Positions 13,995-51,265 of a DNA stretch of 54,895 nt are shown here, in pieces; position 1 is the stretch's first letter, and each line of letters begins with the position of its first letter. Location of the stretch: assembly GCA_035547155.1 (NCBI GenBank), contig DASZVJ010000105.1, positions 1 to 54,895 of the forward strand. Direction: 5' to 3'. Below the pieces are notes generated by a model, which made no database searches, had not been told where the DNA came from, and saw only the letters and a list, made by a program, of their open reading frames with translations. Made by a program: the position numbers and the translations under genes. Source of the stretch: Vicinamibacterales bacterium (lineage in GTDB: Bacteria; Acidobacteriota; Vicinamibacteria; Vicinamibacterales; SCN-69-37).

Positions 13995-14074
13995 AAACTT
14001 TGAACTTCGAACTTTGCACTTTGGGAATTGCAGGGTGGCAAATTTCGAAGTTCGAAGTTCCAAGTTCGAAGTTC
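13995..14074. repeat. Heptamer array, GAACTTY arm (13995-14022) and inverted GAAGTTC arm (14040-14074)
   Basis: aaacttt gaacttc gaacttt gcacttt, then a 17-nt spacer, then aaatttc gaagttc gaagttc caagttc gaagttc. Confidence 0.9.
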
Positions 14075-14098
14075 TGACGCGGCCGAAGGCCGCGTCAG
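14074..14098 (-). terminator. GC hairpin (11-bp stem, GAA loop) overlapping the ABC ATPase stop codon
   Basis: ctgacgcggcc-gaa-ggccgcgtcag. There is no clear U-tract. It directly abuts the heptamer array. Confidence 0.5.
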
Positions 14099-14757
14099 AC
14101 AATCCATCCGTCTCGCAGATTGATGATGCGCGAGCCGTAGGCGGCGTTCGTGTCCGAGTGCGTGACCTGCACGATCGTCGTGCCAGCGGAGTTGAGCGTG
14201 CGGAAGAGCTCCATGATGTCGCGGCCCTGTTCCGAATGCAGATTGCCGGTGGGCTCGTCGGCAAGCAGGACCTTGGGGCTCGCGATGACCGCGCGCGCGA
14301 CGGCGACGAGCTGCTGCTGTCCGCCGGAGAGCTGATTCGGATAGAGATCTTTCTTGCCGACGATTTGAAAGCGATCGAGCGTGTCCGCGACGAGACTCTG
14401 CCGCTCTTTTTTCGGGATGTCGCGGTAGGTGAGCGGCACCTCGAGGTTCTCGTAGACGGTGAGATCGTCCAGCAGGTGATAGCTCTGGAAGACGAAGCCG
14501 ATGTGCTGCTTATGCAGCTGCGTCCGCTGCTTCGGGCTCATGCGGTGGACCGGCATGTCGAGAAAGTCGTACTCGCCGCTCCAGATGCCGTCGTGCATGC
14601 CGAGGATGTGGAGCAGCGTCGACTTGCCCGCGCCCGATGGCCCCATGATCGACACGAACTCGCCCTCTTTGATGTCGAGCGTGATCTGGCGGAGGACGTA
14701 GTAGGTCGACGGTCCCTGTGGATAGGACTTCTCGAGGTTGCGGAGCGAGATCAGCAT
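14095..14757 (-). CDS. ABC transporter ATP-binding protein (MacB/LolD-type ATPase), with no adjacent permease gene
   Basis: GPSGAGKST (Walker A), LSGGQQQ (signature) and VLLADEPT (Walker B). ATG 14757 is preferred over the TTG at 14799. Confidence 0.9.
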   Translation of the reverse strand: MLISLRNLEKSYPQGPSTYYVLRQITLDIKEGEFVSIMGPSGAGKSTLLHILGMHDGIWSGEYDFLDMPVHRMSPKQRTQLHKQHIGFVFQSYHLLDDLTVYENLEVPLTYRDIPKKERQSLVADTLDRFQIVGKKDLYPNQLSGGQQQLVAVARAVIASPKVLLADEPTGNLHSEQGRDIMELFRTLNSAGTTIVQVTHSDTNAAYGSRIINLRDGWIV

Positions 14758-14799
14758 GGCGTCAGTGTAGCCTGATGCGCCCGTCCGCCGCCCGGGCAA

Positions 14800-15213
14800 T
14801 CACTGCAGCACGGGCTGCGTCGGCGCCGGATCGGCCGTGACCGAGAACGGCACCTCGACGAGGCGCTGCCCGTCGAACTCGCCAATCGCCCAGTACGTGC
14901 CAGGCCGCTCGAACGTCAGCGTGAGCTTCAGCGGCATGACGACCATCTCGCCGGAGTCATCGACCGTCGCCTCGCCTTCGCCGAGGAATTGCACCTCTTC
15001 GCCGGGCCGGCGGACGCCCATCCGGCACCGCACCTGTCCGGGGCCGCCTGCGTTCCACAGGCCGACCGCGAGTGTCAGCTGCACCGTGGGCGGATCGCTC
15101 TCCGTCCATCCGCCGATCCCCGTCGTCATCTGACGCAAGTCCGTCGGCCGATCGGGATCGTAGTCATGGCAGAACATCGCGAACGCAACGGTGAGGCGAG
15201 GGAAGGAAATCAT
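14800..15213 (-). CDS. Hypothetical small protein (about 137 aa, beta-rich)
   Basis: Clean ORF immediately upstream of the ABC ATPase. No motif recognised with certainty. The N-terminal LTVAFAMFCHDYD and C-terminal GTYWAIGEFDGQRLVEVPFSV resemble a widespread family of ~130-aa proteins of unknown function. No Shine-Dalgarno sequence is visible, because a heptamer array abuts the start. Confidence 0.5.
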   Translation of the reverse strand: MISFPRLTVAFAMFCHDYDPDRPTDLRQMTTGIGGWTESDPPTVQLTLAVGLWNAGGPGQVRCRMGVRRPGEEVQFLGEGEATVDDSGEMVVMPLKLTLTFERPGTYWAIGEFDGQRLVEVPFSVTADPAPTQPVLQ

Positions 15214-15216
15214 ATC

Positions 15217-48807: not shown

Positions 48808-49115
48808 TCCCGGAGCCCACGTTCAACTCGTATCTGATCCTGTCGGCCGTGCTGTTCTCGATCGGCACGGCGGGCGTGTTCCTGCGGCGCAATCTGATCA
48901 CGATCCTGCTGTCGGTCGAGGTGATGCTCAACGCGGTGAACCTCACCTTCGTGGCCGCCGATCGCTTCTTCCAGACCGTCGACGGGCAGATCATCGTGTT
49001 CTTCGTCATGACCGTCGCGGCCGCGGAGGCCGCCGTCGGCCTGGCGATCATCATCGCGCTGTTCCGGCACAAGGAAACGCTCAATCCGGACGCCTTCACG
49101 TCGTTGAAGTGGTGA
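48804..49115 (+). CDS. nuoK: NADH-quinone oxidoreductase subunit K
   Basis: [34 protein letters not shown] and [17 protein letters not shown]. The GTG start overlaps the nuoJ stop (GTGA). Confidence 0.9.
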
Positions 49116-49119
49116 CCGC

Positions 49120-51144
49120 GTGCTGATCCTGATTCCGCTCCTCCCGTTTCTCGGATTCCTCGTCAACACCGCGTTCAGGCGGCACGTCTCGAAGGCCATC
49201 TCGGGCGGCATCGCGACGGTGGCGATGGGGCTCGCCTTCGGCGTCGCGCTGACGGCGGTGTGGCAGATGCTCGGCAGCACGCCAGTCGGCGGTGTGCGCG
49301 CGATCGAGCAGCAGGTCTTCACGTGGATCGCGTCGGGCCCGCTCGACGTGCCGCTCGCGCTGCGCGTCGATCCGCTGTCGGCGCTGATGATTCTCGTCGT
49401 CACCGGCATCGGCACGCTGATCCATCTGTATTCGACGGCGTACATGCTGGACGAGTCCGACAGCGAGTACGCGCGTTACTTCTCGTATCTGAACCTGTTC
49501 GCCGCGTTCATGCTCGTGCTCGTCCTCGGCGCGAGCTTCCCGGTGATGTTCGTCGGCTGGGAGGGCGTCGGCCTCTGCTCGTACCTGCTGATCGGCTTCT
49601 GGTTCACGAAGAAGACGGCGGCCGACGCGGGCAAGAAGGCGTTCATCGTCAACCGCATCGGCGACTTCGGCTTCATCCTCGGGATGCTGTCGATTTTCGC
49701 GCTCTTCGGCACGCTCGACTTCCAGGCCGTCGCGCTGCGTGTGTCCGCGCTGCCGGCGGAAGCGTCGGCGGGCGTGCTGACGATCACGACGCTGCTCTTG
49801 TTCCTCGGCGCGACCGGCAAGTCCGCGCAGATTCCGCTCTACGTCTGGCTGCCGGACGCGATGGAAGGCCCGACGCCGGTCTCCGCGCTCATTCACGCGG
49901 CGACGATGGTGACGGCGGGCGTGTACATGATCGGCCGCAATGCGGTGCTGTTCAGCCATGCGCCGATCACGCTCGAGGTCGTGGCCGTCATCGGCGCGTT
50001 GACGGCGCTGATGGCCGGCACGATCGGCCTCGTGCAGAACGACATCAAGCGCGTGCTCGCGTACTCGACGGTCTCGCAGCTCGGCTACATGTTCCTGGCG
50101 ATGGGCGTCGGCGCGTTCGCCGGCGGGATCTTCCATCTCTACACGCACGCGTTCTTCAAGGCGCTCTTGTTCCTCGGCTCCGGCGCGGTGATTCACGCGC
50201 TGCACGGCGAGCAGGATCTGCGGCACATGGGCGGCCTGAAGTCCGAGCTGCCGATCACGTACTGGACGTTCCTCGTCGGCACGCTCGCGATTGCCGGTGT
50301 GCCGCTGCTGTCCGGTTTCTTCTCGAAGGACGAAATCCTCGGCCAGACGTTCGAGCACGGTCACACGATCCTGTGGGTCATCGGCATCGTCACCGCGTTT
50401 CTGACCGCGACGTACATGTTCCGTCTGCTGTTTCTCGCGTTCTTCGGCGAGCGGCGAGCGGCGCCGGCTGCGGCGCACGGACACGGCGATGACGATCACG
50501 CGCACGGCCACGCCGGGCATGGCGGCCACGGAGGCCATCTGCACGACGCGCCACCCGCGATGGCGATCGCGCTCGTCGTGCTGGCCATTGGTTCGGTGCT
50601 GGCGGGATACGTCGGCCTTCCGAACGCCGTCGTGCCTGGCGGGAATCGTATCGAGGCGTTTCTCGAGCCCAGCTTCCGCGCGATTGGCGCGCCTGAGCCT
50701 GCCACGGCCCCAGGCTCGATCGAAGTGGCCGAGCCTGCAGAGTCGGCGCAGGAACACAGCACCGAGCTCGCGTTGATGGGCGTGTCGACGGTCGTGGCGC
50801 TCGCCGGCATCGGCCTGGCGTTTGTCATCTACCGCCGCCGCGAAGGGATGGCCGACGCCATCGCCGCGCGCTTCGGCGGTCTGCATCGTCTGCTGATGAA
50901 CAAGTACTACGTCGACGAAGCGTACGACGCGGCCGTCGTGCAGCCGATCAAGCGCACGTCGAGCACGCTGCTCTGGCGCGGCGTGGACGCCGGCCTGATC
51001 GACGGCACCGTCAACGGCGTCGGCCTCGTCGTTCGCGGCTGGAGCGCAGTGCTGCGCCGGCTGCAGACCGGATCGGTGCGCGCGTACGCGATGTCGTTCT
51101 TCGTCGGCGTGGTCGCGATTGTGGGGTATTACCTGTGGCGCTAA
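49120..51144 (+). CDS. nuoL: NADH-quinone oxidoreductase subunit L
   Basis: VGWEGVGLCSYLLIGFW, KSAQIPLYVWLPDAMEGPTPVSALIHAATMVTAGVY and AYSTVSQLGYMF. 674 aa with a C-terminal lateral-helix region. Confidence 0.95.
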   Translation: MLILIPLLPFLGFLVNTAFRRHVSKAISGGIATVAMGLAFGVALTAVWQMLGSTPVGGVRAIEQQVFTWIASGPLDVPLALRVDPLSALMILVVTGIGTLIHLYSTAYMLDESDSEYARYFSYLNLFAAFMLVLVLGASFPVMFVGWEGVGLCSYLLIGFWFTKKTAADAGKKAFIVNRIGDFGFILGMLSIFALFGTLDFQAVALRVSALPAEASAGVLTITTLLLFLGATGKSAQIPLYVWLPDAMEGPTPVSALIHAATMVTAGVYMIGRNAVLFSHAPITLEVVAVIGALTALMAGTIGLVQNDIKRVLAYSTVSQLGYMFLAMGVGAFAGGIFHLYTHAFFKALLFLGSGAVIHALHGEQDLRHMGGLKSELPITYWTFLVGTLAIAGVPLLSGFFSKDEILGQTFEHGHTILWVIGIVTAFLTATYMFRLLFLAFFGERRAAPAAAHGHGDDDHAHGHAGHGGHGGHLHDAPPAMAIALVVLAIGSVLAGYVGLPNAVVPGGNRIEAFLEPSFRAIGAPEPATAPGSIEVAEPAESAQEHSTELALMGVSTVVALAGIGLAFVIYRRREGMADAIAARFGGLHRLLMNKYYVDEAYDAAVVQPIKRTSSTLLWRGVDAGLIDGTVNGVGLVVRGWSAVLRRLQTGSVRAYAMSFFVGVVAIVGYYLWR

Positions 51145-51187
51145 ACGCGTGTCTTCGCGCCGTCAGCGGCGGCGAAGCCGGCCTCGG

Positions 51188-51265
51188 CAAGTTCGACGTT
51201 CGACAAGCTCACGTCGCCCCGAGCCTGTCGAGGGACGAAGTTCGAAGTTCGAAGTTCGAAGTTTC
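51188..51265. repeat. GAAGTTC-family heptamer repeats inside the nuoL-nuoM spacer
   Basis: caagttc gacgttc gac... and gaagttc gaagttc gaagttc gaagttt. This 133-nt gap contrasts with spacers of 27 nt or less at all other nuo junctions. Confidence 0.9.

Follow-up and report, generated by a model that had tools for sequence, protein, structure and literature searches.

What are the short tandem repeats that recur between the genes of a 54,895-nt stretch of Vicinamibacterales DNA (GenBank assembly GCA_035547155.1, contig DASZVJ010000105.1, positions 1 to 54,895; the whole stretch is here called the window), and do they serve the cell? Between positions 13,995 and 51,265 the intergenic DNA holds arrays of 7- or 8-nt units belonging to several families. 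An earlier note on this DNA had listed these arrays and had suggested terminators or insulators, a protein-binding lattice or replication slippage behind them. The arrays are probably long simple-sequence repeats (SSRs) of the short tandemly repeated repetitive (STRR) type, which arise by slippage, fold-back duplication and copying between loci and are kept out of genes by selection. As any cellular role is probably both secondary and generic, they look more like largely neutral or selfish elements ('tolerated weeds') than a dedicated regulatory system.

Distribution of the arrays in the window

Genes were called with a home-made model based on codon usage, which gave 49 genes together with tRNA-Asp and tRNA-Val; the intergenic share of the window (67.7% GC) was 5.9%. 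Arrays were called with Tandem Repeats Finder (TRF) and by direct reading of the sequence, which agreed on spacer-less period-7/8 arrays at every site that the earlier note had listed. Arrays with a period of 7 or 8 and a TRF score of at least 37 were used for statistics. Thirteen of the 15 lay in intergenic DNA (binomial P = 1e-14), and the two 'genic' ones were GC-rich chance repeats of 2.4-2.7 copies. The 22 intergenic segments (3.1 kb) held 12 arrays, against an average of 0.005, and never more than 1, in 200 shuffled versions.

Arrays are excluded from gene bodies, as had been claimed, with the qualification that two of them cover stop codons. Two arrays contain a stop as the triplet cta (TAG when read on the coding strand), one at 15248-15250 and the other at 20217-20219, and the last codons of the flavin reductase (stop at 15248) and of PdxA (stop at 20217) are therefore array-encoded. 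An array or remnant was found in about 9 of the 16 gaps of at least 60 nt, fewer than the 'almost every' gap of the earlier description. All three convergent gaps of at least 50 nt carried arrays, as did most co-directional ones, among them the nuoL-nuoM gap and the spacer between tRNA-Asp and tRNA-Val; four of the five divergent (promoter) gaps were array-free and one carried an array.

At least five solid unit families occur in the 55-kb window, with 7- or 8-nt units that are, as observed before, not multiples of three. The low GC content once ascribed to the arrays in general is confined to the GAAGTTC (43% GC) and GATAG families, which alone are AT-richer than the background; GGGCTAC, CCCCAAG, GTCTGCG and GTCCCTTS units have 62-71% GC. 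Inverted two-arm forms had been described as frequent: four sites in the window have them, and in the GAAGTTC-carrying loci described below neighbouring arrays of the same unit were inverted in 27 cases and direct in 4. At several sites the same order recurs, with a stop codon followed by a perfect GC hairpin, whose loop on the mRNA strand is often UUCG, and then the array; examples are the hairpins at 14074-14098, 40338-40356 and roughly 37047-37076.

Copy-number variation among near-identical contigs

Near-identical contigs from other samples were retrieved by exact-protein look-up in JGI and Logan metagenome assemblies, yielding dozens of sequences with flanks 98-100% identical. Fetched contigs and loci compared with the window carry L numbers (L122, for instance). 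The GGGCTAC array (15217-15258) had four length alleles, with differences of exactly 7, 14 and 21 nt, in 11 near-identical sequences; its ATG-proximal unit was constant and the distal units varied. L122 showed no mismatch to the window in 2,134 aligned nt, yet its GGGCTAC array was one 7-nt unit shorter. L187 had 5 mismatches in 1,628 nt, and its GGGACSAA octamer array (24500-24537 in the window; GGGACCAA) was shorter by one 8-nt unit; this array also lacked one unit in L186 and had one or two additional units in L180, L182 and L183. CCCCAAG units numbered 2 in the window and L191 and 4 in L190. At the thiS site one hairpin arm (40314-40338) carried 3 (L136 and L141), 5 (L137) or 6 (L140) extra GAACTGC units, with the other arm unchanged. 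In the divergent gap between the GDP-mannose dehydratase and glycosyltransferase genes units were swapped (L181) at a total length that stayed constant at 221-222 nt.

The arrays are hypermutable in whole-unit steps, and this polymorphism extends across the GGGCTAC, CCCCAAG, GGGACSAA and GAACTGC units. Since unit insertions and deletions were found at near-zero substitution divergence, they accumulate per locus at least as fast as substitutions over ∼2 kb. Replication slippage, one of the mechanisms originally put forward, is directly supported by these whole-unit differences between near-identical strains.

Cassette replacement and dispersed homologous copies

At the ABC-ATPase site the window-type (A-type) cassette reads (GAACTTC)5-loop-(GAAGTTY)4 with a GC hairpin on each side. 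In L120 it is replaced by another hairpin and the units AAGTTAG AAGTGAC AAGCCAG AAGCCAG AAGTCAG, a loop, and CTGGCTT TTGGCTT TCAACTT TTGACTT. L119 and L124 carry the L120 form minus 77 nt, and flank identity resumes at 'gcagaggtctg'. L135 and L142, with 91-95% overall identity, have at the thiS site a cassette ∼80% identical to that of L120 with the unit order kept, and the more distant L136, L137, L140 and L141 (88-90% nucleotide identity) keep the window-type cassette. The B-type cassette (AAGTTAS-AAGTKRC-AAGCCAR-AAGCCAG) is present at two different loci in other lineages. Cassettes turn over at these sites. Miniature inverted-repeat transposable elements are marked by terminal inverted repeats, target-site duplications and sharp-ended presence/absence polymorphism. 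Cassette replacement and the 77-nt internal deletion were observed here; no target-site duplication, conserved or defined termini or empty site was seen at cassette boundaries in the contigs compared at the ABC-ATPase and thiS loci.

Homology also connects different loci. A single-arm remnant at 37077-37103 in the window, which the earlier inventory had overlooked, is identical in 27 of 27 nt to the right arm of the cassette that L120, L119 and L124 carry at another locus. Segments 14047-14075 and 20218-20246 share 28 identical nt with the variant unit TTCCAAG at the same place, 14043-14073 and 40247-40277 are 94% complementary over 31 nt, and 24502-24534 and 34950-34982 (GGGACSAA octamers) are 88% complementary. 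The GATAG 'octamer arrays' prove to be a single ∼65-nt element present three times, with 72% identity over 65 nt between 25545-25610 and 34989-35053. Because copies at separate loci share the order of their variant units, they are dispersed homologues and not independent local products. The statement that the arrays do not represent the spread of one mobile element stands insofar as there are several families, and fails within a family, where such homologous copies are dispersed. Logan contigs L143 and L147 begin exactly at the GTAG palindrome of the repetitive extragenic palindromic (REP) type beside the octamer array, and JGI contig L144 begins at the array itself, as would be expected of dispersed repeats.

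Arrays beyond this genome

One genome per species (596 Gb in all) was scanned for exact matches to (GAAGTTC)3. At least 113 genome stretches matched, against ∼0.3 expected for a random 21-mer in 596 Gb, and the carriers, which include the cultured isolates Desulfosporosinus sp. I2, Algoriphagus kandeliae XY-J91 and Catenulispora pinisilvae NH11, are labelled by record title as at least 13 phyla or candidate phyla. Among the matches listed, Acidobacteriota accounted for 37 stretches, Verrucomicrobiota for 19, Bacillota for 13, Planctomycetota and Bacteroidota for 11 each, Gemmatimonadota for 5, and Chloroflexota and Thermodesulfobacteriota/Desulfuromonadaceae/Geobacteraceae for 3 each; Cloacimonadota, Latescibacterota and Patescibacteria had 2 each, Actinomycetota and Gammaproteobacteria 1 each, and 3 were unclassified. 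The GC content of these loci (0.35-0.70, again among the matches listed) agreed with the taxon labels. With arrays in Acidobacteriota, Bacillota and Bacteroidota alike, this one heptamer has an unusually broad host range. A phage origin was rejected, (GAAGTTC)3 being found once in 2.9 million viral contigs. A literature search for the exact sequence GAAGTTCGAAGTTC found no paper.

Period 7 dominated in the (GAAGTTC)3 loci, with 210 arrays; periods 6, 8 and 9 were represented by 42, 28 and 34. In 81 heptamer arrays the units were unrelated to GAAGTTC, and some 8-kb loci held 10-12 arrays. Array density in 69 GC-rich loci was 1.71 per kb in convergent, 1.45 in co-directional and 0.61 in divergent gaps, and 0.06 per kb in genes. 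GAASTTC is a 7-bp palindrome around its central base; palindromic units as a general rule were rejected, since fully palindromic units made up 12% of the 81 unrelated arrays vs 10% expected. A unit repertoire shared across phyla was also rejected: GGGCTAC, CCCCAAG, GGGACSAA, GATAG-type, AAGTCAG and AAGCCAG arrays were each found in 0-2 of the 113 loci, counts within or barely above those of composition-matched shuffled units, and the resemblances seen in L043, L041 and L110 are anecdotal.

Relatives at 63-77% amino acid identity often had arrays of other units beside the homologous gene (ACTTCTG, AATAGCCC, eight copies of CCGCACTT, GAGTTCG). In the 20-kb loci of the relatives L153, L163 and L174 a single array was found in 10.8 kb of intergenic DNA vs 13 in 3.6 kb in the window. 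Array density is lineage-specific and differs more than 30-fold between related lineages. In the Chloroflexi metagenome-assembled genome (MAG) JACQYF010000176.1 (L032, 3240-6914) a 1,224-aa HdrA-like open reading frame (ORF) runs in frame through three array blocks (about 5368-5416, 5555-5588 and 5825-5929), with protein inserts such as SLPTSNFRLPTS and SQQSTVNSEQLTVNSKQSNFQLPISNLQSQRSNL; arrays can therefore arise in genes and survive if the frame is kept.

Relation to known repeat classes

As a kind, the phenomenon is not new: an intergenic excess of heptamers in many prokaryotes has been described, with an origin by DNA-polymerase slippage proposed (PMC4679880, PMC4692102). As cited in these two papers, Mrazek et al. 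(2007) found heptamer repeats to be the most abundant long SSR in most of the prokaryotic genomes surveyed; PMC4692102 also cites the three tandem heptanucleotides of Calothrix. By array counts, the period-7 excess of the (GAAGTTC)3 loci (210 arrays) matches this published heptamer excess. The arrays of the window consist of head-to-tail units without spacers beyond chance, lie mostly between genes, have a non-triplet period, vary between strains by whole units and fall into several families. These are the defining features of heptameric long SSRs and STRR-like repeats, whose units have 5-11 nt and typically 7, and the arrays are therefore of an already known kind.

STRRs, described around 1990, had been named as the closest analogy, and aptly so. 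In heterocystous cyanobacteria (Calothrix, Anabaena, Nostoc) they are likewise spacer-less heptamers, with several families per genome and many dispersed copies between genes, some of them in operons. Unlike these, the present arrays are found in an uncultured high-GC soil bacterium of another phylum, have units such as GAAGTTC, GGGCTAC and CCCCAAG, include octamers and have two-arm forms beside GC hairpins. Identity with STRRs in the strict sense was rejected, as the host is not cyanobacterial and the units differ from the canonical STRR sequences.

Xanthomonas (GGGAATC) and Nostoc PCC 7120 (GGGGAYT) have heptamer repeats that are also intergenic, mostly 0-50 bp from the end of an ORF (Rehm et al. 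2015, PMC4692102). Some form inverted pairs between convergent genes, and they occupy the same gene sites across related species with varying length and sequence (PMC4692102). They differ in being G-rich and forming G-quadruplexes, to which the window units are not prone, and Xanthomonas has one dominant family, whereas the window has at least five. The TAACTGA repeats of marine Beggiatoaceae, cyanobacteria and Bacteroidetes (MacGregor 2015, PMC4679880) share with GAAGTTC the presence of one heptamer in distant phyla, mixed with other heptamers, and are often located directly upstream of start codons without canonical ribosome-binding sites (PMC4679880). TAACTGA contains forward stop codons and has an orientation preference in Beggiatoaceae; GAAGTTC has neither, reading without a stop either way and showing no bias.

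REP elements, bacterial interspersed mosaic elements (BIMEs) and the REPIN-RAYT system (hairpin-forming REP doublets and their REP-associated tyrosine transposases) resemble the arrays in being short, extragenic, dispersed and lineage-specific, with inverted doublets at gene 3' ends and in convergent gaps (PMC3116915, PMC3733652); the inverted-doublet hairpin is found here at the four two-arm sites. Unlike the window arrays, a REP is an imperfect palindrome of 20-40 bp tagged with GTAG or CGTC, and no unit-step variation in length is described for it. Identity with REP or REPIN elements was rejected, the arrays being tandem 7-8 nt units and the GTAG palindromes standing apart from them, as had been recognized. 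Those GC-rich REP-like palindromes (GTAGGGGCCGCCCTTGTGGCGGCCC) lie at 12940-13036 (palindrome 12990-13023) and 24449-24482 and are 88% complementary over 34 nt; L198 holds further copies, located upstream of smpB. Such sequences match the 'GTAG-tagged' class of REPs (PMC3733652), and the GTAGCCC heptamer has the same GTAG start. The arrays are not CRISPR arrays either, in line with the earlier view. CRISPR repeats measure 23-50 nt, alternate with unique spacers of similar length and usually have cas genes beside them; the units here are contiguous without spacers, 7-8 nt long, and no cas gene occurs among the window genes.

Proposed origin of the arrays

Strand misalignment at replication would add or remove units. 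MutS-type mismatch repair does not deal with loops as large as 7-8 nt, and because they escape it such slippage would change copy number. Fold-back or template-switch synthesis may make an inverted pair from a single array, the arms then diverging independently. Recombination, gene conversion or a mobilising activity would copy arrays among intergenic sites, by preference just downstream of genes and beside stable GC hairpins, and purifying selection would remove frame-breaking arrays from gene bodies. Two-arm forms would add an RNA or DNA hairpin at transcript ends and single arms an unstructured spacer. The window and its near-identical contigs allow these dynamics to be read as unit gain and loss, growth of one arm, cassette replacement and copying between loci. 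If neutral, the arrays offer a natural read-out of repair and replication bias and are a practical cause of fragmented soil MAG assemblies.

Several points weigh against this account. Slippage alone leaves the strong preference for 7 nt over 5, 6 and 8 unaccounted for, as it does the GAAGTTC arrays in at least 13 labelled phyla and the ordered variant patterns at separate loci and in separate lineages. The A-type cassette at the thiS site is kept across contigs as divergent as those listed above. Two-arm cassettes fold far beyond shuffles, at transcript ends beside GC hairpins, which fits selection for structure, and the exchange of units at constant length in the divergent gap hints at a length constraint. 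Hypermutability is read from allele differences, the gene calls come from a rough model, and the 113 loci are a sample selected for carrying (GAAGTTC)3.

Alternative explanations

It is possible, if unlikely, that the arrays act as functional RNA at transcript 3' ends, with two-arm hairpins terminating transcription bidirectionally or protecting mRNA, as REP/BIME elements do, and with single arms serving as insulators or standby sites. Such a role would agree with the folding of two-arm cassettes as long hairpins (z = −8.0 for 13960-14100 on the minus strand, z = −4.4 and −5.8 for the two strands of 40236-40360), with their inverted bias and with the adjoining GC hairpins with UUCG loops. The median distance of GAAGTTC arrays is 58 nt to the upstream stop and 142 nt to the next start, and intergenic density is highest in convergent and lowest in divergent gaps. 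Most arrays, however, are single arms, whose folding does not exceed that of shuffles (z between −1.6 and +1.1), and arrays are also found inside the nuo operon and between co-transcribed tRNAs; for single-arm arrays these findings lend no support to the terminator or insulator role of the earlier note. Cassettes are replaced or half-deleted in close strains with their flanks unchanged, related lineages are without arrays, and a conventional GC hairpin already stands beside each two-arm cassette. By sequence reading, the GC hairpins next to arrays have no U-tract and are followed instead by GAACUUCGAAC... or ACAAGUCAAAAG....

The arrays follow no strand logic. A strand-specific RNA motif was rejected, since the mRNA reads GAACUUC 21 times vs GAAGUUC 18 times and no orientation bias was seen. 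Intrinsic (Rho-independent) terminators were rejected as well: the arrays are not GC stems, the adjoining hairpins have no U-runs and single arms are unstructured. A search of the window with Rfam 15, at gathering score and E ≤ 0.5, matched only the two tRNAs.

A dedicated, horizontally spreading activity (a repair polymerase, a transposase-like enzyme or a binder of the heptamer lattice) that writes and copies ordered arrays of 7-nt units beside hairpins at 3' ends, frequently in the form of fold-back pairs, is rather improbable. It would explain the 7-nt preference, the occurrence of GAAGTTC in at least 13 phyla, the recurrent ordered cassettes and the more than 30-fold density differences.

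Also improbable is a cognate protein that binds the arrays or copies them between loci, either in the manner of REPIN-RAYT or as a cold-shock (OB-fold) heptamer binder, with the unit co-evolving. The shared variant order of dispersed copies, the B-type cassette at two loci in other lineages, the extragenic hairpin-forming inverted doublets, the same heptamer in many phyla and the breaking of assemblies at the repeats are all compatible with it, and binding of heptamer repeats by CspB has been discussed (PMC4679880). Pfam was run on 37 of the 49 window genes and precomputed contig annotations were utilized for the remainder; no transposase, RAYT, reverse transcriptase, cas gene or candidate array binder was found among the 49. 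The missing target-site duplications and defined termini also argue against a copying protein, many unrelated units per genome would need many specificities, palindromic units are not enriched, and unit families other than GAAGTTC are not shared beyond chance. If a protein were behind the arrays, it would represent a widespread, unrecognised genome-shaping system.

It is very unlikely that the arrays are contingency loci whose copy number tunes promoter spacing or downstream translation initiation, as do the intergenic 7-bp repeats upstream of hmw1A and hmw2A in Haemophilus influenzae, whose copy number is also slippage-driven (PMC8262952, PMC12721329). Length polymorphism in the population is present. 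Array sequence without a Shine-Dalgarno adjoins two start codons, that of the 137-aa gene (15211-15250, gtagcccgatATG) and that of the major facilitator superfamily (MFS) transporter (20142-20219, ...cctcaagcgaATG, with the abutting segment at 20145-20150), and the GATAG arrays fill a divergent promoter gap of conserved total length. The hmw repeats, however, are single loci serving surface adhesins in a host-adapted pathogen, whereas here dozens of sites are concerned, with housekeeping neighbours (nuo, pdxA, tRNAs, thiS, smpB) in place of surface or variable functions. Most arrays are at 3' ends or in convergent gaps, and the ATG-adjacent unit is constant.

An assembly or polishing artefact has next to no probability: repeats are error-prone in short-read assembly and several contigs end at arrays, but identical arrays, with flanks 99-100% identical, recur in assemblies made independently by two pipelines (JGI and Logan) for more than 20 samples, and arrays are also present in cultured isolates of other phyla.

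Arrays site by site

Downstream of the ABC-ATPase gene a two-arm cassette is formed by a GAACTTY arm of 4 units (13995-14023; TRF period 7, 4.0 copies) pairing with an inverted GAAGTTC arm of 4.4 units (14044-14074, TRF). It is flanked by a perfect GC-rich hairpin, GCGGCACCGCGC-TTC-GCGCGGCGCCGC, at 13968-13994 (12-bp stem in the fold) and by a minus-strand GC hairpin at 14074-14098, identified by sequence and fold, which has a UUCG loop on the mRNA strand and overlaps the ABC-ATPase stop codon. The GGGCTAC heptamer array at 15217-15258 (TRF) extends from the flavin-reductase gene, whose stop is inside it, to the ATG of the 137-aa gene. A GAACTTC array of 3.9 units (17052-17079; TRF and reading) has convergent genes on either side.

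Two degenerate GAAGTTC/GAACTTC arms fill the tRNA-Asp to tRNA-Val spacer (18203-18305) and fold weakly better than shuffles (z = −1.6). A degenerate GGGCTAC-type triplet of units at 18439-18459, recognized by reading, is downstream of an MFS gene and its GC hairpin (18504-18533). The long degenerate GAAGTTC/GAGGTTC array at 20151-20247 (TRF score 108) runs from pdxA, whose stop (20217) it contains, to the MFS transporter start; TRF reports higher-order periods of 14, 22 and 30, and the RNA is unstructured (z = +1.1).

The GTCCCTTS (GGGACSAA) octamer array at 24500-24537 (TRF) directly follows the GDP-mannose dehydratase stop. In the divergent gap, a GATAG/CTATC element of ∼65 nt with an 8-nt internal period (25545-25610, minus strand; fold z = −3.5) is the left arm of an inverted pair. 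Its right arm (25640-25708, plus strand; TRF) ends 15 nt before the glycosyltransferase ATG. The GTCTGCG/CGCGGAC site at 27664-27743, between convergent genes, had been listed as an array; it proved weak as such, with 2-3 units, of which TRF finds 2.4 copies at 27727-27743, and is mainly an imperfect palindrome (fold z = −3.4).

Three repeats follow one another from a methyltransferase stop codon, at which a GGGACSAA octamer array begins (34951-34986; TRF and sequence comparison). Next come the third GATAG copy (34989-35060, minus strand), identified by the 72% identity comparison and length-polymorphic in L190, and the CCCCAAG heptamer array (35062-35082, TRF). The 27-nt remnant at 37077-37103 (GACAAGT CAAAAGT TGAAAGC CAAAAG) stands by a GC hairpin downstream of a 604-aa gene. 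Between the convergent epimerase and thiS genes a two-arm cassette consists of a GAACTTS arm (40245-40277; TRF and fold) and a GAAGTTC arm (40314-40338; TRF and reading) adjoining the GC hairpin at 40338-40356, which abuts the thiS stop. The GAAGTTC array of the nuo operon (51188-51265, TRF) has 4 perfect units at 51236-51263 and no significant RNA structure (z = −1.6), and ends 6 nt before the GGGAGG Shine-Dalgarno of nuoM.

Neighbouring genes and further observations

The arrays have ordinary chromosomal neighbours: genes of polysaccharide synthesis, pabB, an ABC-ATPase gene, holB, the gene of an MFS transporter, pdxA, the genes of a TetR-controlled efflux system, the GDP-mannose dehydratase gene, thiG, thiS, smpB and the nuo operon. 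The window derives from a metagenome of soil type, and its proteins are also found in an NCBI record and on contigs of the JGI and Logan metagenome assemblies. Three of them are 36-51% identical in amino acid sequence to proteins of a Vicinamibacterales MAG, the best named relative among the fetched loci, which points tentatively to the Acidobacteriota. The nuo operon (42077-54327) comprises nuoA-B-C, a SIS-domain gene (43544-44143), nuoD-E-F and then directly nuoH-J-K-L-M-N; nuoG and nuoI are absent from this cluster.

Some features were seen at other loci. In two 'Bacillota' MAGs, L043 (6360-6530) and L064 (1440-4310, with 12 arrays in 8 kb), the arrays are flanked by a common motif, ACGGACCCCAAAGG(G/C)C. 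L043 reads GAAGTTAG AAGTCAG AGGTCAG AAGCCAG GAGCCAG AAGTCAG, a unit order as in the L120 cassette. L153 (12297-12348) and L163 (16482-16533), where heptamer arrays are nearly lacking, have in common a 14-15-nt tandem repeat, CCCCGGGTCT(A/G)A(A)GA, in 3.5 copies. In the Vicinamibacterales MAG DATDHP010000031.1 (L010, 3500-4000) a coding-like stretch of ∼350 nt is located between CAGGCCT and TCAAGGC/TTGAGCC arrays; the locus holds 11 arrays in 8 kb, several inside called genes, with small-gene boundaries uncertain there.

Five well-supported ORFs of the window have no Pfam match: 30192-32579 (795 aa), 15981-17036 (351 aa), 13037-13687 (216 aa), 37676-38230 (184 aa) and 14800-15213 (137 aa). Many soil and rhizosphere metagenomes encode relatives of the 137-aa protein, with a best-segment identity of 61-83% and in neighbourhoods that vary.

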